Source: Minisyncoccota bacterium
GTDB taxonomy: Bacteria > Patescibacteriota > Minisyncoccia > Phycocordibacterales > UBA2100
Direction of reading: 5' to 3'
Length of the DNA: 64,000 nucleotides
Assembly: GCA_965267345.1 (NCBI GenBank)
Contig: OZ253947.1
Span: 398,665 to 462,664, forward strand
Shown here: in pieces, positions 3,619 to 50,654 of the stretch
Position numbering within the stretch: position 1 is the first letter of the stretch
Layout of the letters: every line of letters starts with the position of its first letter
The notes under the pieces: generated by a model
The model's input: only the letters and a program-made list of their open reading frames with translations
The model's database searches: none
What the model was told of the DNA's origin: nothing
Program-made: the position numbers and the translations under genes

Positions 3619-6120
3619 CTACGCCTTATCTTCCTTTGTGAGTGTCACGATTGAGGCAATAGCATCGCCGGAACGGAGCTTCATAATGCGTACGCCCTGC
3701 GTCTGTCGCCCTTGTAGCTTCAAGTCATCAATCGTTGTTCTGATGACCTGCCCGCGCTTCGAGACCGCAACGAGCTCGCCGGTGTCTGCATCGATGACGC
3801 GTGCGCCAATAAGTTCTTTTGTCTTTGGGGTGATATCAACGGTCTTGATGCCCGATCCTGCACGCTTTTGGACCTTATACTCCTTCATAGCGGTCTTCTT
3901 TCCGTACCCGGTTGCCGATACGACGAGCAGTGCGGCATCTTTCGCTCCCTTTTCCACCACACCGGCACCAATGACGGTGTCATCTTTGCCGAGCTTGATA
4001 CCGCGCACACCTGCAGCGGTGCGTCCCATCTCACGTGTATCGGCTTCAGTGAATCGAACCGCCTGACCGTTTTTGGTGATCAAAACGATGTCGTCACCCT
4101 TGGCAACAAAATGTGCTGAAATGAGTCGGTCACCGCCGGTGAGCTTGATAGCAATAAGGCCACTACGACGCACATCAAAGAATTGCGGTGCCGCTGTTTT
4201 CTTCACCGTTCCCTCGCGCGTCACCATTAACAGTGAGAGCTCTTCTGCATCTTTGATATCTTTCGGCATTGGTAGCACTGACGTCACTTGCTCGTCCTGC
4301 TCAAGCTGCAGGAAATTCATAATTGATTTTCCTTTTGTTGAACGCTTGCCTTCAGGAATTTCATACATCTTCGTCTGGTAGACCTTTCCTTTATCGGTAA
4401 AGAACAGTAGATCAGAGTGTGCGCTTGCGGTGAGGAATGTGGTAACTACATCTTCCTCTTTGGTATTCATATCAATGACCCCAACACCACCACGTCGCTG
4501 CGTACGATACTCGCTCGGATTCGTGCGCTTAATGTAGCCGCCGCGGGTCAGCACGAGTGCAAATGCGTCATCAGGGATGAGGTCTTCCATGGAGAAGTTC
4601 TTGGTGCCGCGCTTCATGATTTTCGTGCGGCGATCGTCACCGTACTTCTCTGCCGCCTCTTTCAGCTCTTTCTTAATTTGATTCATCAGCTTCGTCTTAC
4701 TCTTGAGAATACTCTCGAGCTCAGCGATGAGTGTTTGGAGCTCTTTCAGCTCGTCTTCAATTTTTTGTCGCTCAAGGTTCGCCAGCTTCTGCAGGCGCAT
4801 TTCGAGAATTGCCGTGGCCTGCACGTCAGAGAATTTAAAGGTCTTCATGAGTCCGGCGTGTGCTGTCGGCACGTCCTTACTCTTCTTAATGAGCGCGATC
4901 ACCTTGTCGATATTGGCGAGTGCTTTTTTCAGACCCAGCAAGATGTGCTCACGTGCACGTGCTTTGTCGAGATCAAACTGAGTGCGGCGCGTTACCACCT
5001 CAGTGCGGTGTGCAACGTACGACTCAAGCATCGACTTAAGCGGGAGTGTTTTTGGCACACCGTCAATGAGTGCCACCATGTTGTAGTGGAATGTTTCCTC
5101 AAGTTGGGTGTGCTTGTAAAGGTAATTCAGCACCGACTGCGGGTGTGCTGTTCCCTTCAGATCAATCACCACACGAATATCGGTGGTTGATTCGTCACGA
5201 AGCCCTTTAATACCTTCGAGCTTCTTCTGCTGTACCAGGTCGGCAATTTTTGAAATGAGTGTTGCTTTGTTAACGCGGTATGGAATTGACGTAATGACAA
5301 TCTGGAACGTACCTTTTGCTCCTTCGACGATCTCTGCCTCACCACGCACCACCACACCACCGCGCCCGGTTGCGTATGCATGTGCAATGTCTTTCTGATT
5401 AAAGGCAACACATCCTGTTGGGAAATCAGGTCCCTGAATGTATTTGAGTAGATCCTCAGTCGTGCTCGATGGCGTATCAATCAGGTGCATGATGGCATCG
5501 GTCACCTCGCGCAGGTTGTGTGGCGGTATATTTGTTGCCATACCCACAGCAATACCCAGTGTGCCGTTGAGCAAGAGGTTCGGGAGTGCCGCCGGCAACA
5601 CGGTTGGTTCTTTGTGTGTGTTATCAAAGTTTGGGCGGAAGGTAACGGTATCTTTACCGATATCGCGCAGTAGCTCGACGGCAATGGCCGACATTTTCGC
5701 CTCTGTGTAACGGTACGCAGCTGCCGGGTCGCCATCGATGGAACCAAAGTTACCCTGTCCGATAATGAGCGGATAGCGCATCGAAAAATCCTGCGCGAGG
5801 TTGACCATCGAATCGTAGACGGCAGAGTCGCCGTGCGGGTGGTACTTACCGATTACGTCACCGACAACCGTTGCCGACTTGCGTGTCTTGGCATTCGGCG
5901 TCAGACCCGAGTTGTGCATGGCAAAGAGAATGCGACGATGCACCGGCTTCAGTCCGTCACGCACATCAGGAAGCGCACGTGAGGTAATGACACTCATCGC
6001 GTAGTTCAGATACGCTTCGCGCATCTCGCCACTAATGCCTTGGTTGATGACTCCTGCGCGAGTTACCGGCTGTACGTCATCCTTTTTTTTATCGTCATCT
6101 TTTTTCTTTCGTGCTGCCAT
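3619..6120 (-). CDS. gyrA: DNA gyrase subunit A
   Basis: 833 aa. The N-terminus reads ...[28 protein letters not shown], with the active-site Tyr region and a C-terminal beta-pinwheel repeat region. Confidence 0.93.
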
Positions 6121-7329: not shown

Positions 7330-8478
7330 ATGAGTACAACACACGAAGAGGAGGTTGCTTCAGCTGGAAGCAAAAAAGACAGCCTCATGACGGCACTGAT
7401 GAACGATGTGCCGAGTGCACCCGTTGTCGGTGACGTGGTTGAAGGACCGGTTATCGATATCGACCGTGGACGCATCTATATTGATTTGCATCCGTTTGGT
7501 ACGGGTATTATTTACGGCCGTGAGTATCTCTCGGCACGTGACATTCTTAAGAACGTAAACCCTGGCGACACCATCGCCGCAAAGGTTGTTGACGTTGAAA
7601 ATGAGGACGGCTACATCGAAGTATCACTTCGCGAGGCGCGTCAGGCGCTCGTATGGGGCGAAGCTGAAGCCGCACTCAAGAACAAGACATCGCTGGAGCT
7701 TCCGGTGAAGGATGCTAACAAGGGTGGCCTTATTATTGAGTGGCAGGGCATTCAGGGATTCCTCCCTGCGTCGCAGCTTGCTGCCGAGCACTACCCGCGT
7801 GTTCCTGACGGTGACAAGGACAAAATCTACGCTGAGCTGATGCAGCTCGTCGGCGAAAAACTCTCGCTGCAAATCATTACGGCTGACGCAAAAGAGCAGA
7901 AGCTCATCTTTACCGAGAAAGGTGCTGAGGATGAAGACAAGGCAGAGCGTGTCGACAAGAAGTACCACGTTGGCGATGTGTACGAAGGTGAAGTAACCGG
8001 CGCAACTGAGTTTGGCGTCTTCGTCAAACTGGAAGACGGCCTCGAAGGCCTCGTGCACATTTCCGAAATGGACTGGGCACTCGTTGAGGATCCAAAAGCA
8101 CGCTACAAAGTGGGCGAGCATGTCCGCGTGAAAGTCATTGATGTGAAAGACGGCAAAGTCTCACTGTCGATTAAGGCGCTCATTGAAGACCCGTGGAAGG
8201 CAGCGTCTGAAACGTACAAAAAAGGTGACACGGTTGACGCTGTGGTCATCAAGTACAACAAGCACGGTGCACTGGCATCAATTGAAGAAGGCGTCGCAGG
8301 ACTCGTGCACGTGTCTGAGTTCGGCTCAAGTGATGCACTTCGCGAAACACTCAACCTTGGTGGTTCATACACCTTTGTCATCACGCTCTTTGAGCCTGAT
8401 GACCACAAAATGACGCTCTCATATACAGAAGCACACGGCGGTACACCGGCTGCTGATAAAAAAGAAGCTGACGCGTAA
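7330..8478 (+). CDS. rpsA: 30S ribosomal protein S1-like, with four S1 RNA-binding domains
   Basis: Repeated S1 OB-fold motifs (GDVVEGPV..., GDVYEGEVTG..FGVFV, GEHVRVKVIDV, GDTVDAVVIKY...GLVHVSE). The start could be 7387. Confidence 0.75.
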   Translation: MSTTHEEEVASAGSKKDSLMTALMNDVPSAPVVGDVVEGPVIDIDRGRIYIDLHPFGTGIIYGREYLSARDILKNVNPGDTIAAKVVDVENEDGYIEVSLREARQALVWGEAEAALKNKTSLELPVKDANKGGLIIEWQGIQGFLPASQLAAEHYPRVPDGDKDKIYAELMQLVGEKLSLQIITADAKEQKLIFTEKGAEDEDKAERVDKKYHVGDVYEGEVTGATEFGVFVKLEDGLEGLVHISEMDWALVEDPKARYKVGEHVRVKVIDVKDGKVSLSIKALIEDPWKAASETYKKGDTVDAVVIKYNKHGALASIEEGVAGLVHVSEFGSSDALRETLNLGGSYTFVITLFEPDDHKMTLSYTEAHGGTPAADKKEADA

Positions 8479-9863: not shown

Positions 9864-11018
9864 ATGTTATCGGTACACCACACCGCATGTGGCAGCACTG
9901 GCGAAGTGCTCGATCGTGCCTTGGACGCTATTGAATTTTACGGGTTTACACCACTCGAAACCCTGTTGAAAGAGTATAAGCCGTCGCGCAGCCCAAAACA
10001 GACCGCCTCACCGACACTCGCTCTGTCCGCTGAGCGCAAACTTGCCTCACTCACCAAAAACCTCGTCGCGCACGGCTTTGCAAAAGAGACACTCCCGCGT
10101 TTTGCATACAATATTGATGCAAACAAGCAGTCGGTGACACTCGGCATGCACACCGTCGGCAGCGACGACCCCATTGCCGAGGGCATGCTTCTTGCCACAC
10201 TGGCAACAACGCTCCGCGAAAACGGTATCAACGATTTCACCGTACACCTCAACAGCGTCGGTGATAAAGAATCAGCGGCGCGCTTTGTGCGCGATCTTAC
10301 TGCTTTCCTGCGCACGAAACTCAACGACATGCCAAGCTACGCACGCGACGATATGTCCGGCGGCAACCCCGTCCGTGCATTTCTGCGCCTTGCCGAGAAA
10401 CAGCACGAACTTATTGCTGACGCACCAAGTGCGATGGAGTACCTCAATGACGAAAGTCGCGTGCACTTACGCCATGTGCTCGAATATCTGGAAAACATGA
10501 ACGTGCCGTATGAGCTCAACAGCACTGTGGTCGGCAGCCCTGAATGCTGGCGCCATACCATTTTTGATGTACGCATCCCGACTGAAGAAGGTGACGTGAC
10601 CGTCGCGCACGGTGGCCGTCATAACGCACTCGCACAAAAAGCGTACCGTCTTGAATTGCCGGCCGTCAGCGTCCTTATCGATCACGAAACGCGCGGGCGC
10701 ACGAAACCGAAGCGCCGCAGTCAGCATCAGCCGAAATTCTTCTACGCGCACCTCGGACCACAAGCACGACTGCAGAGCTTTAACGTTTTGGAGAACCTGC
10801 GTACTGCGGGCATTCCCGTCGCACAGATGCTTGCTGCACCAACCATTGGCCTCCAGCTCGAACAGGCGGAACGCTCTGCAGTGCCCTACACGATTATCAT
10901 TGGTCACAAGGAAGCACTCGAGCACTCGGCAATCGTGCGCAATATGCACTCGCGCTCGCAGGTGGTGGTGCCGATTAATCACCTCTCAGGGTACCTTAAG
11001 CGACTCAAAGTGGTGTAG
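9864..11018 (+). CDS. Histidyl-tRNA synthetase-like class II aaRS (divergent)
   Basis: The ATG at 9864 directly follows the lepB stop. A motif-3-like segment AHGGRHNALAQKAYRLELPAVSVLID and a C-terminal HGPT-type anticodon-binding domain (PYTIIIGHKEALEHSAIVRNM) are present. The N-terminal region is atypical. Confidence 0.5.
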   Translation: MLSVHHTACGSTGEVLDRALDAIEFYGFTPLETLLKEYKPSRSPKQTASPTLALSAERKLASLTKNLVAHGFAKETLPRFAYNIDANKQSVTLGMHTVGSDDPIAEGMLLATLATTLRENGINDFTVHLNSVGDKESAARFVRDLTAFLRTKLNDMPSYARDDMSGGNPVRAFLRLAEKQHELIADAPSAMEYLNDESRVHLRHVLEYLENMNVPYELNSTVVGSPECWRHTIFDVRIPTEEGDVTVAHGGRHNALAQKAYRLELPAVSVLIDHETRGRTKPKRRSQHQPKFFYAHLGPQARLQSFNVLENLRTAGIPVAQMLAAPTIGLQLEQAERSAVPYTIIIGHKEALEHSAIVRNMHSRSQVVVPINHLSGYLKRLKVV

Positions 11019-18767: not shown

Positions 18768-20687
18768 TTACTGAGTATTTAGTTCTTGCTGAGCGTCTGG
18801 CCAACCCATTTCCGCAAGAAATCGAGACCGCCTCTTTTGCCAACCGCGATAGTCTTTTGCCGTCGATAGAACAAGATGCTGCTTGCAGCGCGTAATGGCT
18901 ACAAAGCAATTCCGGCGCTCTTCCTCCATCTCGGGTGAAGCATCTCCCTTCTTGACGCTCTGCCAGGACGGCATTTCATCTTCCGCTAATCCAACAAGGT
19001 AGACTGTATCGAATTCGAGCCCCTTGGACGAGTGGACGGTCAAGAGGCTGACGGCATCTGGATCTTTAGGAGGTTCTTTTGAACGCAGTGCCAATCCTTG
19101 TACGACCTCCGCCAAATCGGGATTTGGCCCGATTTCCGATCGAATTTCCCGAAGACAAGCGTCCCATGCTCGCTGGTCTTCCACGACGTCGCTCACCGTA
19201 CCATCCTCGATAACCTCAGTTTTCAATAAGAACGGGATGGCCCGTTTGATCACATCGCTCCATCTGCTTCTTGAGTCGATTAACTCGTGAGTAAATTGCG
19301 CAAGATGCTGTGGCGTTGATTCCGGCTCATGTCCAACGACCTCACTCCAATGCTCCAAGAAGCTTTGGCTCGAAGCCTCAGACTCGGCAATCAAAATGGT
19401 TGGATCGAGCTCCATGTCCGCGAAGCGGTTGGCGGCATTCACTAGCGTTGTGAAGACTCTTTTGTTTCGAGGCCGAACAGCTTGATCGAGACAGGACTGA
19501 AGCCACACGAATTGAGGTGACGCAAAGCTATCGCGCCGCTGTGCTATTGCGGCCTTTACGCCTTTGGCCTTCAGCGCGGTGAGTACCGGTTCAAGCAGCG
19601 CCCGGGTTCGGCCGATTACGGCAATTTCTCCATGATCTTCGGCAGAGACTTTAGATATTTCCGTAGCAACAAATTCGCTTTCGTCAGTGCTGTTCTCAAA
19701 TTCGTGGAAGAATATTGTGTCAGGTGCGGCTTCTCGAGTCGGCACAATTTTCTTCTTGTCGGGTGTGCGCTGAGTATTGTGGGAGACAAGGCGGTTAGCG
19801 ATGGAAACAACCTCAGCTGGGCAGCGACGATTTTCCACAAGTTGAATCAGCTCCGGCTTAAAATCATCACGGAACCGCTCAATCTGACGGTAGCTCGCTC
19901 CCGCCCACTGAAAAATTATTTGATCGTCATCAGCGACACACATGACGTTGGAGAATTCCGCGCCTGTCATGTAGTGAAGAAGCCAATACTGGGCTCTCGT
20001 CGTGTCCTGAAATTCGTCAACCATCCAATAGGGATATGTACGGCGGATGCGCTTCGCCACCGCCGGCACCTGGGCAAGTAGCCGGCAGGTCTCCAAAATC
20101 AAGCCGTTAAAATCGAGTGCGTTCTCGGCGCGTAAAGCTTCCTCATACAGTTTGTAGACAGCGGGCATGCGTGGGTTTCGTATGTGTTTGGCCGCTTTAT
20201 CCGGGACTACCAACCGTGCCTTCATTTCATCGATAGCGCGAAGAAAGTGGATGTCCTCAGCGACAAAGTCGCTCCCACTCGCCGCGGCTGCCTCAAGCGC
20301 ATCAGCGAGCAGTGCCTCTCGCTCACGCTCAAGATCGAAAATCCCGAAGTCAGGTTCAATACCGATGTGGGAGCCATGTTGCCGCAAAATTTGAGTGCAA
20401 AAAGCGTGAAATGTTCCAATGAACGTGCGGTCGTCTACGGAACCTGGAACCATTTGTTCCACACGTTCGGCCATTTCGGCGGCAGCTTTCGTCGTGAACG
20501 TAAGCGCGAGGACACGAAAACGCTTTTGTGGAGATTCTTCCAGAAGGCGCGCAAGCCTGGTCGTTAATACACGCGTCTTGCCGGATCCTGGTCCAGCCAA
20601 AACGAGAGCAGCGCCATCGCGCCACATAACGGCTTCGCGCTGGATGTCGCTTAGGCTATCGATTGCATCTTGAAATTCGCTGCTCAT
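18768..20687 (-). CDS. gajB: UvrD/PcrA/Rep-like superfamily-1 DNA helicase (Gabija GajB-like)
   Basis: Motif I AGPGSGKT, motif Ia TFTTKAAAEM, motif II YWMVDEFQDTT, motif VI VHSSKGLEFDTVYLVG. The start overlaps the stop of the upstream OLD-family gene by 4 nt (ATGA). Confidence 0.7.
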   Translation of the reverse strand: MSSEFQDAIDSLSDIQREAVMWRDGAALVLAGPGSGKTRVLTTRLARLLEESPQKRFRVLALTFTTKAAAEMAERVEQMVPGSVDDRTFIGTFHAFCTQILRQHGSHIGIEPDFGIFDLEREREALLADALEAAAASGSDFVAEDIHFLRAIDEMKARLVVPDKAAKHIRNPRMPAVYKLYEEALRAENALDFNGLILETCRLLAQVPAVAKRIRRTYPYWMVDEFQDTTRAQYWLLHYMTGAEFSNVMCVADDDQIIFQWAGASYRQIERFRDDFKPELIQLVENRRCPAEVVSIANRLVSHNTQRTPDKKKIVPTREAAPDTIFFHEFENSTDESEFVATEISKVSAEDHGEIAVIGRTRALLEPVLTALKAKGVKAAIAQRRDSFASPQFVWLQSCLDQAVRPRNKRVFTTLVNAANRFADMELDPTILIAESEASSQSFLEHWSEVVGHEPESTPQHLAQFTHELIDSRSRWSDVIKRAIPFLLKTEVIEDGTVSDVVEDQRAWDACLREIRSEIGPNPDLAEVVQGLALRSKEPPKDPDAVSLLTVHSSKGLEFDTVYLVGLAEDEMPSWQSVKKGDASPEMEEERRNCFVAITRCKQHLVLSTAKDYRGWQKRRSRFLAEMGWPDAQQELNTQ

Positions 20688-22603
20688 GACCCTCTTGTTT
20701 TGAGCCGTTCGATCAAGTCCACGAAAGGCTTCGGCATTTGAGCGGCGAGCTTTGCATCCGCTGCAACCATAGGAGCGAGCTCTGTCATGTAAGCCACCTT
20801 TCTATTTTTCAGGTGGCGCTTGAGCGTATCCAAGTCACACGATTTTGCCGAAGACCCGATGAGATCACAGAGTATGTCACGGAGGAGAGCTTCATGACCG
20901 TCTGCGATGAGTTGCTCCTCCAAATTGTGTGGCGGCGTAAGTGAGGTAACTCGCTCATCGACCTCTGCTTGTGTGAAGCCCCGCTTCACTATCTGCTTAC
21001 AAAATCTCGCACCTTCATCGTCACCATCGACAATCATGTCCCAAGGAATTTCGAAAGCATCCGCGAGAGCTGCATAGATGGCCGGGCTACCGTTGTTCTG
21101 AAAATCAATGACAGCGACGCCGTGCTGATCGAGATCGTATCCCAGGGCCATACCCAATGCATGAAGAAGTAGGTAGTCAGACTGGCCCTCCGCCAATACC
21201 CAGCGACGAGCAAAAAAGATCTCTCCCCGCATACGACGCCCCAGTAAGGCAAGGTCAGCCTCATCCTCCTTCGATATAAGCAACCGACATTCATGTCGAA
21301 ATTCAGCAACAACCTTTTCCATACTGCTGGCGGATGTCGTGGATTTCCAACAGGCTGCCAAATCGGCGGCGAATTTCTCATCGAACCAAAGCGTAGCTGA
21401 CACGGTCCCTGATTTTTCGTCCTTCTTGATCCAATCCAACCGGCGACCAGCTACCAGGTTCTTTACTTCCTCCGTCCACGGAAGATCAGAAACAACGCGT
21501 CGCTTCAGCTTGCTCACTGAAGTGGAACCGTCCACAAATCGTACGTATCGAAGATTGTGTAGCGGTACATTCTGCACAAAATAGGGAGAATGCGTGGTGG
21601 CAATCGACTGTCCCGGTAGCTCACATATGCGTCTCCAGAGCGTGCGTGCTGCCTGTGGGTGCAAGTGAACCTCTGGCTCTTCAATTGCAAAAATTGGCTC
21701 GGCACCCTCAGGAAGGTCACTTGCCAACGCCTGCGCAATTGCCGCCTGAAATAGAAAAATCACCGCTAAGCTTTGGAGACCTTGTCCATGGTGATCGAGC
21801 GGCAGCCACGGATGAAGCTCTTCATTTCGGAGAACCAGACCGGCGCGAGAGAGAAGATCCCACAAATTCAGAGGTAGCATACGGAGTCGTGCCGTGCCGG
21901 GTTTGTCTCCTGATGCTATTTCCGTCGCACGGCCGATCGTCTCCGCAATCTCAGCAAATCGCTTATCAGAGCTAAGAAGCTTCTCATCAAGCTCATCAAG
22001 TTTCTCTTTGACTTCCATCTCTAGTGCTGGGGGCACATTCATCGATTTGAGCAGCCCACCCCAGTAGCGAGATCGTGCAGTGAATTCCGCATCGGCGTCC
22101 CGCAAGGCACCAAGCCAGTAGAAAAGTACGTAGTTGTAGAAGCCAGAAAGATTGATGGAGCGCCGTCTCACCCCCATCGGCTTGCCATCTGGATTCAGAA
22201 ACTCCCACGCCGGCTTGAATGCTTCGTCATCCGGATCCCAGGAGTAGGAGATTGCTATGGCTACCTGGTTCAACCCGTCGGTTGTGAGCGTCACGATGTC
22301 ATCCAGATCTGCGACCATGTCCTCAGGCCACTCATCTGGCTCGGTCTCTTCAAAGACAATTTCTATTCGGGATCCTGGGGCAGAGCGAGGGTCATGCTTC
22401 TTCGGATCCGCTATGTGAATGTCATCTTCGGTGAAGCCTGTACCGCGTTGGCCCCATCGACGAGACAACGCGATTCTGAGCGCCTCCAAAATTGCTGACT
22501 TCCCGGAGTTATTCGCCCCAATTAAAACAGTCGTATCGTCCAACTCGAGGGTGAGTTGGGCGATCGATCGGAAATTCTCAATGTGTAACCGTCGGATCTT
22601 CAT
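20684..22603 (-). CDS. gajA: OLD-family ATP-dependent endonuclease: ABC-type ATPase plus C-terminal TOPRIM (Gabija GajA-like, class 2 OLD)
   Basis: Walker A GANNSGKS, ABC-like signature IFAIEEPEVHLHP, TOPRIM Glu in VLAEGQSDY and DxD in IVDGDDEG. 639 aa. Partnered with the UvrD helicase downstream. Confidence 0.72.
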   Translation of the reverse strand: MKIRRLHIENFRSIAQLTLELDDTTVLIGANNSGKSAILEALRIALSRRWGQRGTGFTEDDIHIADPKKHDPRSAPGSRIEIVFEETEPDEWPEDMVADLDDIVTLTTDGLNQVAIAISYSWDPDDEAFKPAWEFLNPDGKPMGVRRRSINLSGFYNYVLFYWLGALRDADAEFTARSRYWGGLLKSMNVPPALEMEVKEKLDELDEKLLSSDKRFAEIAETIGRATEIASGDKPGTARLRMLPLNLWDLLSRAGLVLRNEELHPWLPLDHHGQGLQSLAVIFLFQAAIAQALASDLPEGAEPIFAIEEPEVHLHPQAARTLWRRICELPGQSIATTHSPYFVQNVPLHNLRYVRFVDGSTSVSKLKRRVVSDLPWTEEVKNLVAGRRLDWIKKDEKSGTVSATLWFDEKFAADLAACWKSTTSASSMEKVVAEFRHECRLLISKEDEADLALLGRRMRGEIFFARRWVLAEGQSDYLLLHALGMALGYDLDQHGVAVIDFQNNGSPAIYAALADAFEIPWDMIVDGDDEGARFCKQIVKRGFTQAEVDERVTSLTPPHNLEEQLIADGHEALLRDILCDLIGSSAKSCDLDTLKRHLKNRKVAYMTELAPMVAADAKLAAQMPKPFVDLIERLKTRGS

Positions 22604-23009: not shown

Positions 23010-23084
23010 TGGTGACCCTACGGGGAATCGAACCCCGATTTCCACCGTGAAAGGGTGGCGTCCTAGCCGTTAGACGATAGGGCC
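23010..23084 (-). tRNA. tRNA-Glu (anticodon TTC), CCA encoded
   Basis: Revcomp GGCCCTA TC GTCTAACGGCTAGGAC GCCACC CTTTCAC GGTGG AAATC GGGGTTCGATTCCCC GTAGGGTC ACCA. Confidence 0.88.
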
Positions 23085-23234: not shown

Positions 23235-23361
23235 CTCGTTTGTACGTAACTATCTACACGTCCATACCTGCGATTCGAAAAGATGTTTTACTGCACGAGG
23301 ACCGCCCTTACGCAAACCTCTGATACAAGGTCGGTCCTTGTTCTGCTTGCAGGGTGTTTCG

Positions 23362-23387
23362 TACCTACTGAGATATCTCAGTAGGTA
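23362..23387. promoter_or_regulatory. 26-bp perfect palindrome (tacctactgagat|atctcagtaggta) just upstream of a TGTTATACT extended -10 in front of tsaD
   Basis: Perfect dyad symmetry, read from the sequence. Located 25 nt upstream of TGtTATACT at 23412-23420. Confidence 0.4.
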
Positions 23388-23458
23388 TACCAAAGTTAAT
23401 TCAAAAGTTGATGTTATACTACCCTCGCCATGACGTCTGTGCTACCGTACATCGGTAT

Positions 23459-30045: not shown

Positions 30046-30477
30046 CTAGCGCAGGCGTTCTGTGTACAGTGACAAAAATTCGGGAAATGCCGAATGCGTC
30101 GGATTCGGTATCGTATCGAGCGTACACCACTCGAGTGCGTCAAACTTATGCGGTTCCCCAATGGCAACACGCGTCGGATCAACCCGCACTTTAAAGTCGA
30201 GACCGATCCAGTGTGTTTTTGCCCCTCCATGTTCGCGGTGCACATCACGGAACCCTAAGAATTCGTAGTCGATCACTTCAGTACAGTACTCTTCTTGTAT
30301 TTCTTTCCGCAGCGTATCTTCAACCGATTCACCGTGCTCAAGTCCACCGCTGCCAATATCCCAACAGCCATGCTCATCGCGACACTGCGCACTGCGCTTT
30401 GCCATGAGAAACTTCCCGTTTCCATCGTGACAGAAAAAGACAACTGAAACCCCCGTGTAATCTTCACCCTTTTTCAC
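30046..30477 (-). CDS. NUDIX hydrolase
   Basis: Nudix box GGLEHGESVEDTLRKEIQEEY. Confidence 0.85.
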   Translation of the reverse strand: MKKGEDYTGVSVVFFCHDGNGKFLMAKRSAQCRDEHGCWDIGSGGLEHGESVEDTLRKEIQEEYCTEVIDYEFLGFRDVHREHGGAKTHWIGLDFKVRVDPTRVAIGEPHKFDALEWCTLDTIPNPTHSAFPEFLSLYTERLR

Positions 30478-30491
30478 CGAATTACTATAGC

Positions 30492-30512
30492 AGTGTCCTC
30501 GGTAGGAGTCGA
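30492..30512. repeat. 21-bp direct duplicate (agtgtcctcggtaggagtcga) of the 3' end of tRNA-Arg: attachment-site-like repeat
   Basis: Identical to 30699-30719, which is the T-loop/acceptor 3' half of the tRNA. Confidence 0.7.
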
Positions 30513-30700
30513 TATCAGCTCACTACGCATTTTTATGTCTTCGGCACGCTCAGACTTAAAAATACCAAGTGGCTCCTATCCGGACTCGCCGACCCAGCCC
30601 TTCTCGAAGGGCTGGGTGCCCCGGGTCCGTCTTTCGCCTCAACCGACGACGTGTTGCTCATGGCAGCAGATGCGTCGCATCTTCTGCGTGAGCATACAAG

Positions 30701-30772
30701 TGTCCTCGGTAGGAGTCGAACCTACATTTGCCCCTTAGGAGGGGGCCGTTCTGTCCGTTGAACTACGAGGAC
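30701..30772 (-). tRNA. tRNA-Arg (anticodon CCT)
   Basis: Revcomp GTCCTCG TA GTTCAACGGACAGAAC G GCCCC CTCCTAA GGGGC AAAT GTAGGTTCGACTCCTAC CGAGGAC A. Confidence 0.85.
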
Positions 30773-31078: not shown

Positions 31079-31371
31079 ATATGTTGATTACATATTTCTA
31101 ACGGATACAGTATAGCATGCATTGGAAAGATGCAGCCCCGAAAGCGGGCATCAGCTCACTAATTCGCTTACGCTCATAAGTGGCTCCTGCCCAGGCTCGT
31201 CTTCCTCGCTCCATGTACGTCGCTCGGATATGACTCCGCCGCTCGAATCGTCGCGTTGCTCCGATATATTCGCTCTTTTCGATTCCCCACGAAAGCCAAG
31301 TAGTTGGCTTTCTCATCTCCGAGCACGCACATAAAAATACCATTGCACGCAGCGGCATTTTTATGGCGTTG

Positions 31372-49989: not shown

Positions 49990-50168
49990 CATATGCAAAT
50001 AGGATGGCTTTTTAGGCCACCTATTTTGGATACTCATGCAGAAGGAAGCGGAGCTTCCGAAGGGATTCGAAAAGAGCGAGTATATCGGAGTGTAGCGACG
50101 ATTCGAGCGGCGGGGTCGCGTCGCTTAGTATTTTAAGGAACGACAGTGATGTAAAATACTTAGCAGAG

Positions 50169-50654
50169 GTGACCGAGTCCCTCCCTCTCCGCAAAGTAGA
50201 CACACGAGTCTGCTACAATACATTCGTGGCACACACTCGAAACAAAACACAGGCAACACAAACATCGGTACGCGACTATATTGCGTCGCTCCCCGATGAT
50301 GCACGTCGTGATGCAAAGACTCTTCTGAAGATTTTCAAAGATGCAACAGGTGCACAGCCTGTGGTGTGGGGCGCTATGGTCGGTTTTGGCAACTATCACT
50401 ACGTATACGACTCAGGACGTGAGGGCGACTTTTTCGCGACGGGCTTTGCCCTCCGCAAAAGCGGCCCCGTCGTCTACATCATGCCCGGATATACCGACTA
50501 CGCATCACTGCTTACAAAGCTCGGCCCGCATACGCTCGGAAAGTCGTGCCTCTACATCAAGCGTTTGGAAGCCATAGATGCTGACGTCCTTACAAAACTG
50601 ATCAAAACAGGCATACGCGACCTTGCAAAAAAGTATCCCGTAACGATGAAATAG
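50169..50654 (+). CDS. DUF1801 (YdhG/YdeI-like) domain protein
   Basis: VRDYIASLPDDARRDAKTLLKIFKDATGAQPVVWGAMVGFGNYHY matches DUF1801. The start is uncertain: GTG at 50169, no SD. Confidence 0.55.
   Translation: MTESLPLRKVDTRVCYNTFVAHTRNKTQATQTSVRDYIASLPDDARRDAKTLLKIFKDATGAQPVVWGAMVGFGNYHYVYDSGREGDFFATGFALRKSGPVVYIMPGYTDYASLLTKLGPHTLGKSCLYIKRLEAIDADVLTKLIKTGIRDLAKKYPVTMK

Follow-up and report, generated by a model that had tools for sequence, protein, structure and literature searches.

An element downstream of tRNA-Arg in a Patescibacteria genome resembles the tRNA-linked repeats of Escherichia coli

The 64-kb stretch of DNA analyzed here, termed the window, harbors a tRNA-Arg(CCT) gene followed on the same strand by a small repeat-bounded element and by a gene for a NUDIX hydrolase, which we regard as context outside the element (Table 1). 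The 21-mer AGTGTCCTCGGTAGGAGTCGA is present in exactly two copies within the window, spaced by 186 bp (30513–30698) and thereby delimiting a repeat unit of 207 bp. No third copy was found in the window with up to three mismatches allowed, and 100 shuffles indicated that no chance matches are to be expected even at three mismatches. The exact 21-bp duplicate of the tRNA-Arg end with about 186 bp between the copies, which an earlier note on this DNA had pointed out, was thus confirmed by search and by shuffling. The repeat does not comprise the 3' half of the tRNA, as stated there, but its last 19 nt from T55 to the discriminator A together with 2 trailer nucleotides (CT). As the tRNA-Arg gene is located on the minus strand, the 186-bp interval constitutes the 3' flank of the tRNA, and the element (30699..30492), a single unit corresponding to 1.1 copies, directly adjoins the tRNA 3' end.

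Table 1 Positions of the features at the tRNA-Arg locus and of the sister elements in the window.
Feature	Position	Strand	Basis and details
tRNA-Arg(CCT), no encoded CCA	30700/30701..30772	minus	ARAGORN; Rfam tRNA model, 67 bits
Copy 1 of the 21-mer (a)	30699..30719	minus	T55 (T-loop) to discriminator A73 plus 2 trailer nt
H1, 19-bp imperfect hairpin directly after the tRNA	30652..30698	minus	Folds; no U-run in the window Arg copy
a', antisense of the tRNA 3' end	30632..30651	minus	~15/20 nt, one gap; folds, duplex test
H2, 19-bp hairpin holding a perfect 9-bp stem (30592–30617)	30581..30629	minus	Folds
Module M, conserved long hairpin	30505..30595	minus	Alignment A1, RNAalifold, covariance model R1 (82 bits)
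Copy 2 of the 21-mer (a, downstream copy)	30492..30512	minus	Exact repeat search
Candidate NUDIX promoter	30484..30512	minus	Consensus match; −35 TCGACT, 17-nt spacer, TG-TATAGT −10
NUDIX hydrolase gene (context, outside the element)	30046..30477	minus	Starts 15 nt after copy 2
Sister element 3' of tRNA-Gly(CCC)	31130..31370	minus	M 31141–31206; 52-nt module 31236–31287
Sister element 3' of tRNA-Ser(GGA)	49991..50193	plus	Terminator-like H1; 52-nt module 50062–50113; M 50092–50180

Folding of the interval as RNA, as the earlier note had proposed, yielded an energy of −95.9 kcal/mol, corresponding to z = −6.2 relative to dinucleotide shuffles. Inclusion of tRNA-Arg lowered the z-score further to −7.3 and altered the minimum-energy structure, in which the distal copy a pairs with the 5' part of the tRNA and the proximal copy with a'. 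Read 5' to 3' on the minus strand, the parts follow each other in the order H1, a', H2, M and second a. In the predicted fold, residues 30638–30650 of a' pair with 30495–30508 of the downstream copy, thereby closing a multi-branched structure. The likewise noted perfect 9-bp stem nested in a longer stem is indeed found inside H2, with the arms ACCCAGCCC (30592–30600) and GGGCTGGGT (30609–30617) and with the loop TTCGAGAA on the RNA strand. The base of module M pairs with the first nucleotides of the downstream copy (GAGUC with GACUC). For seven of seven tRNA-linked elements the sense strand folded better than the antisense strand, by 1–15 kcal/mol. Judged from these models, the 207-bp unit would behave structurally like an insertion in the T-loop that supplies its own replacement 3' end.

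Homologues of LepA assign the host to the Candidatus Kaiserbacteria within the Patescibacteria (CPR). We compared the locus with a set of fetched loci (denoted by L-numbers), where L009 and L018 stem from more distant Patescibacteria and L086 and L088 from related Kaiserbacteria. The relatives exhibit a conserved order of LepA, DivIC, in part tRNA-Gly, glutaredoxin, tRNA-Arg, a small membrane protein and tRNA-Phe; a protein identical to the window glutaredoxin is not on record. Ten relative loci contain tRNA-Arg without the element (L018, L084, L090, L092, L093, L094, L097, L101/L102), and at these element-free loci the promoter of the next gene directly follows the tRNA. In L088, tRNA-Arg is followed by 294 nt, a copy of the tRNA end with 2/18 mismatches and a terminator, module M being positioned just before the copy. 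L086 and L099/L100 contain a 159-nt unit composed of terminator, hairpin and M at 1.3 copies, and L098 contains 2.3 copies of this unit downstream of tRNA-Arg (7848–8214), which are 100% identical to each other. As the LepA proteins encoded by L098 and L099/L100 are identical and the loci differ by a single 159-nt unit, the tandem copy number varies within one species. The repeat of L086/L098 extends through about 50 nt of terminator, and an A-U to G-C compensatory change in hairpin H2' separates these two close relatives.

The same architecture was found after tRNA-Gly in the more distant genomes, with 153 nt and a perfect copy of the tRNA end (20 nt) in L009 and with 119 nt and a diverged copy in L018, in both cases with the layout of tRNA, hairpin, antisense copy, interior and direct copy starting in the T-loop. 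The element size therefore ranges from 119 to 294 nt across the copies. The direct copy starts at tRNA position 55–56 in the window Arg element, L009, L088 and the tRNA-Ser(GGA) element, and at position 61 in L086/L098. A hairpin equivalent to H1 is terminator-like in L018, L088, L086 and the Ser(GGA) element. The loci that share this architecture (L009, L018, L088, L086 and L098–L100) derive from independent assemblies of different studies.

The closest relative, L087 (85% LepA identity), exhibits a different arrangement at 3941–4137, where an intact tRNA-Arg(CCT) with encoded CCA (3977–4051) is nested inside a second, decayed tRNA-Arg(CCT), whose 5' fragment gctcctgtagttcaatggaca and 3' half (anticodon stem to taggagca) are situated on either side. 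The acceptor strand of this split pseudo-tRNA is the same as that in the 5' strand of M.

Besides the direct copy, each clear element contains an inverted copy of the 3' end of its own tRNA, matching at 17/17 positions in L009, 10/10 in L018, about 13/16 in L088 and about 15/20 in the window Arg element. This segment is located 45–80 nt after the tRNA end in all elements except L018. We assessed the pairing by comparing the duplex energy between the direct copy and the interior with that obtained for 1000 shuffles of the interior. The number of shuffles performing equally well was 36 for the window Arg element, 0 for L009, 16 for L088, 98 for Ser(GGA) and 96 for L018, resulting in a combined p value (Fisher) of 4e-5 for the five CPR elements and of 8e-6 for six elements including the E. 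coli RtT repeat described below. For the window Arg copy alone, the complementarity between a' and a is only modestly significant. The closing helix varies in length between 10 and 17 bp, as opposed to a strict 12-bp minihelix. In each case the inverted copy as well as the direct one matches the adjoining tRNA, which a transposon end of fixed sequence cannot explain. In L018, the inverted copy forms with the tRNA-Gly end, around a terminator-like hairpin, a 21-bp perfect palindrome (10385–10436), tatcccgcacaataaaaaaac gaaa gtttttttattgtgcgggata, which would compete with the acceptor stem in a read-through transcript.

Module M adopts the form CGAGUCCGGAUAGGAGCCACUU–variable apical hairpin–AGUGAGCUGAUA, alternatively written as CGAGYCYGGRYAGGAGCCACTT, variable apical hairpin, AGTGAGCTGA. 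Five copies were identified, located in the window Arg, Gly(CCC) and Ser(GGA) elements and downstream of tRNA-Arg in L086 and L088, and RNAalifold analysis of these copies showed compensatory changes on both sides for 10 of 28 base pairs. Besides the Arg element, the covariance model R1 scored the Gly copy with 60 bits and the Ser(GGA) copy with 61 bits; as R1 was built from those sequences, the scores are not independent, and the independent support for a shared module M is provided by the alignment and the compensatory pairs. The proposed alignment of the interval to the other tRNA-linked elements hence substantiated the idea that sequence modules are common to the Arg, Gly and Ser elements, M being the one shared by all three. 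A search with R1 through 667 kb, covering the window and the CPR loci, retrieved no copies beyond the five used to build the model, all of which are tRNA-linked. The closest match to the Gly copy of the window is the Arg copy of L086.

The two sister elements within the window share a further common stretch of 52 nt with 88% identity. The Ser(GGA) element ends in a diverged copy of the tRNA end (50175–50192, 6/18 mismatches), and no clear copy of the tRNA-Gly end was found in the tRNA-Gly(CCC) element, in which M is followed by the hairpin gatgcccgctttcggggctgcatc. The Gly element is absent in L087, where tRNA-Gly is located 90 nt from the glutaredoxin gene.

Additional features were observed at other tRNA genes. 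The 3' flank of tRNA-Ser(CGA) (23236–23400, plus strand) starts with a motif of the 52-nt module, gcgattcgaaaaga, and contains the perfect palindrome tacctactgagatatctcagtaggta; a similar palindrome, ctcagtagatatctac, is found in L093 just before tRNA-Phe (~9900–9935). Directly 3' of tRNA-Glu(TTC) (23084..23010), the segment 18768–22603 (minus strand) encodes an OLD-family ATPase/TOPRIM nuclease (20684–22603) and a UvrD-like helicase (18768–20687), a Gabija-like defence pair that may form an island at this tRNA.

The element resembles the tRNA-linked repeats (TLRs) of E. coli, which include RtT/rttR and rrA/rrB/rrF. In total, 22 TLRs have been described, distributed over ten loci that contain one to five each (PMC8144298). 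Their hallmark is an identical repeat, over 18–19 bp, of the 3' terminus of the gene for a stable RNA just upstream (PMC8144298). The copies at rrn operons are situated between two terminators, and are made by read-through and processed, and owing to the repeated 3' end they are probably processed by RNases in the same manner as the upstream stable RNA (PMC8144298). Although known since 1978, E. coli TLRs have mostly not been assigned a function or an origin, and no function is known for them except for the binding of RrA/B/F to Hfq and CsrA in vitro (PMC8144298). Within the literature searched, we found no description of TLRs outside enterobacteria.

As a direct comparison we used the tyrT-tyrV locus of E. 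coli K-12 (L096), which yielded four matches to the RtT family (RF00391) at 133–138 bits. Each RtT copy ends in AATCCTTCCCCCACCACCA, identical to the last 19 nt of tRNA-Tyr from T-loop position 58, and the RF00391 consensus is closed by GgGaaGGAU paired to AUCCuuCcC, the copied tRNA-Tyr end, with the antisense segment positioned 56–70 nt after the tRNA. The CPR elements have the same properties: they are located immediately 3' of a stable RNA gene on the same strand, their last ~19–21 nt repeat the gene's 3' end from the T-loop onwards (21 identical nucleotides for the window Arg element), and an internal antisense segment 45–80 nt after the tRNA closes the structure with the copy, in the window element within a predicted fold. 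Likewise, related copies are found at different tRNAs, each tailored to its own tRNA. The four RtT copies at tyrT-tyrV moreover parallel the tandem arrays of the Kaiserbacteria (159 nt at 1.3–2.3 copies), and some copies lie between two terminators, as in L009 and L088.

On the other hand, the CPR hosts belong to a different phylum, M is unrelated in sequence to the E. coli repeats, the window copy is a single unit, and CCA is not encoded in the window element, whose copy ends in the genomic trailer ACT instead. The RtT model matched neither at its gathering threshold nor at E ≤ 10 in the window segment 30400–31460 and in L009 10600–10790, and Rfam as a whole retrieved only tRNAs at both the gathering threshold and E ≤ 10. 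The likeness is therefore one of architecture, for which homology is not demonstrable, and given the missing model match we classify the elements as working like TLRs and not as members of RF00391. A small ORF is present both in the E. coli repeat, where it is termed tpr, and in the window element, where 42 Ser/Arg/Pro/Gly-rich residues could be encoded on the sense strand (30661..30533, minus); we found no similarity of this ORF to Tpr and rejected the coding reading, and no credible ORF was found within the 186 bp. Small RNAs are also released from tRNA precursor trailers, as in the case of 3'ETS-leuZ (cited in PMC8144298), but these short trailers contain neither a copy of the tRNA end nor an antisense closing helix. 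By eye, purine-rich GGCGA/GAGCGA/CGAAAG motifs are visible in all TLR-like elements and in E. coli RtT, exemplified by GAGGCGAAAGACGG (window), GAGGCGAGAGUCGCGG (L009), GGCGAGAAGCGAAAGG (L018) and GGGCGAAGCGCGC (E. coli).

The downstream copy of the 21-mer coincides with the only promoter-like site in the region, a candidate promoter for the NUDIX gene whose −35 element consists of the first 6 nt of the copy. One such site was found where 1.0 was expected. The conservation of the downstream copy could instead reflect a −35 role in this putative promoter. Many genes in the window and in the relatives are preceded by an extended −10-like motif, TGCTATACT or TGNTATAGT, which is found just upstream of the start codons of the glutaredoxin, small membrane protein and NUDIX genes. 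The sequence flanking the downstream copy (GCTATAGTA) resembles that flanking the element-free sites (GCTATACTA); this likeness was traced to the generic extended −10 motif of the lineage and thus provides no evidence for collinear flanks.

The reading we prefer, to which we assign about even confidence, is that the element is a non-coding TLR-type unit fused to the 3' end of tRNA-Arg, consisting of H1, a', H2, M and a, which is transcribed and processed and whose gain, loss and amplification are driven by recombination. Given that it has the layout of the E. coli TLRs, the element was probably not left behind by a lost prophage. According to the proposed mechanism, the T-loop of the tRNA gene would mark the start of the DNA unit, and transcription of the element would occur together with tRNA-Arg or by read-through from it, although the terminator-like H1 in several relatives would limit co-transcription. 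The pairing of a' with a would form a helix resembling the acceptor/T-arm, ending in the discriminator and trailer of the tRNA itself. The tRNA 3'-end machinery (RNase Z) would then trim the end of this helix, and the CCA-adding enzyme would probably add CCA, giving rise to a stable RNA of about 150–200 nt with module M as its cargo. At the DNA level, recombination between the copies of the tRNA end may lead to gain, loss and tandem amplification of the unit.

The earlier note had interpreted the two copies as the attL/attR signature of a tyrosine-integrase element. In integrase att sites at tRNA genes, the repeated sequence spans the segment from the T-loop to the end of the tRNA. We consider it possible but rather doubtful that a miniature or decayed integrative element is present here and that a tyrosine recombinase (Xer- or integrase-type) crossed over in the T-loop. 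It is similarly doubtful that the element supplied the replacement tRNA 3' end as attL, displacing the original one to attR, and that M and a' represent arm or hairpin sequences of attP, the element being mobilized in trans or a deletion remnant. This reading is consistent with the start of the repeat in the T-loop, at positions 55–61 in the window Arg element, L009, L088, Ser(GGA) and L086/L098 and at position 58 in E. coli, with the ten relative loci devoid of the element, and with the movement of M between tRNA identities, as indicated by the Gly copy being closest to an Arg copy of another genome. Integrative elements that target tRNA genes and their integrase-less derivatives, such as cis-mobilizable elements (CIMEs), likewise exhibit repeats starting in the T-loop, element-free relatives and an intact tRNA.

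A related precedent is CTX-phi-type (Xer-dependent) integration, which uses a folded single-stranded hairpin as attP. There, too, inverted target-like copies lie close to each other and could fold to mimic the chromosomal site, and the same order would be left behind; by this analogy, the order of tRNA(a), H1, a', interior and a would be expected from a circle with a folded a/a' attP. The junction of such a circular form would read ...GCTGATA/TCGACTCC...ACACT/TGTATG..., that is ...AGTGAGCTGATA/TCGACTCCTACCGAGGACACT/TGTATGCTC.... In contrast to CTX-phi, however, the target would be the tRNA T-arm and not dif, and phage genes are missing.

Several results argue against an integrative origin. A Pfam scan identified no integrase, transposase or reverse transcriptase, and no recombinase in general, within the 186 bp or among the 30 window ORFs scanned. 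Searching for the tRNA-Arg end elsewhere, as had also been suggested, was not fruitful, as the 19-mer of the tRNA 3' end (contained in the 21-mer) yielded no match in viral contigs and five in metagenome contigs, of which two fall in a coding sequence unrelated to it and three in tRNA-Arg genes that lack the element. The viral and metagenome contigs yielded no gene-carrying relative sharing the att site or its arms, only the tRNA portion of the query was matched by blastn in the phage and plasmid collections, and no direct repeats other than the small elements themselves were detected within 9 kb of 108 tRNAs in the fetched loci. A single viral match to the M pattern is located inside an ORF of a high-GC phage contig and was judged to be due to chance. 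Furthermore, random decay of larger elements should give a wide size range, whereas all copies fall between 119 and 294 nt. The L086/L098 repeat, running through the terminator and forming a tandem array, fits unequal crossing-over better than site-specific excision, and the folding bias towards the sense strand along with G-U pairs suggests selection on one strand. Compared with integrative elements and CIMEs, the element thus lacks integrase and cargo genes, spans merely 186 bp, and differs by its antisense att copy, its tandem variation and the selection for a single-strand fold. Of the att interpretation, the repeat from the T-loop to the tRNA end and the existence of relatives without the element hold up; the absence of a recombinase and of a larger version, the invariably small size, the antisense copy, the conserved hairpin module and the tandem variation speak against the remainder. 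What the data show is not a larger element in decay, while site-specific or hairpin-mediated insertion may still be the route by which TLR-type units spread.

Alternatively, the element could be a non-functional by-product of a tandem duplication of tRNA and trailer, after which the second tRNA body was deleted and the remainder drifted by unequal crossing-over, as has long been assumed for the 178-bp repeats of E. coli tyrT. We regard this as unlikely. Tandem behavior is indeed evident within one species from the identical 159-nt units at 1.3 versus 2.3 copies, the split pseudo-tRNA-Arg around the live tRNA-Arg in L087 attests to tRNA-gene rearrangement at the locus, and the 5' strand of M looks like the 3' end of a tRNA (GAGTCCGGATAGGAGCCA) and shares its acceptor strand with the L087 pseudo-tRNA. 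However, there is no tRNA body 5' of the downstream copy, as neither ARAGORN nor the Rfam tRNA model, even at E ≤ 10, detected one in 30492–30699. Duplication moreover fails to explain the antisense copy of the local tRNA at the same distance in every clear element, the compensatory changes in M and H2', and the presence of M at three tRNA identities. A chance match or an assembly artefact, for which nothing speaks but the general risk of metagenome-assembled contigs, is extremely improbable given that no chance matches are expected and that independent assemblies exhibit the same architecture.

Other classes of elements were considered and rejected. A MITE or IS-derived transposon is incompatible with a' and a following the local tRNA, with a repeat of 20–50 bp and with copies solely after tRNAs. 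ARAGORN found no tmRNA or two-piece tmRNA, and no reverse transcriptase is located nearby that would point to a retron non-coding RNA. An IS110 bridge RNA or a TnpB/IscB guide RNA was dismissed as genes for a recombinase or nuclease are missing and the presumptive guide is engaged in base pairing, a CAST homing spacer as Cas and Tns genes are absent, and a primer-binding site as the antisense segment mismatches the mature CCA end.

Returning to the TLR-type reading, a broader version of it would regard TLR-type units as a cross-phylum class of tRNA-gene elements of about 120–300 nt, which enter at the T-loop and are expressed as tRNA-tailed RNAs; at present we view this generalization as improbable. 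Each unit would carry a replacement tRNA 3' end together with its antisense copy, and might enter via a folded a/a' hairpin mimicking the tRNA gene, or in the form of a circle of one unit length that inserts again and is amplified in tandem. The same architecture in E. coli and in minimal-genome Patescibacteria suggests either strong convergent selection or a shared mechanism. As gain, loss and amplification take place between close relatives, origin and function become testable by comparative genomics and metatranscriptomics. The locus also calls for caution, in that short duplications of tRNA ends are not always prophage scars. If the cross-phylum reading is true, the E. coli TLRs, unexplained since 1978, and the CPR elements would be the same kind of thing.
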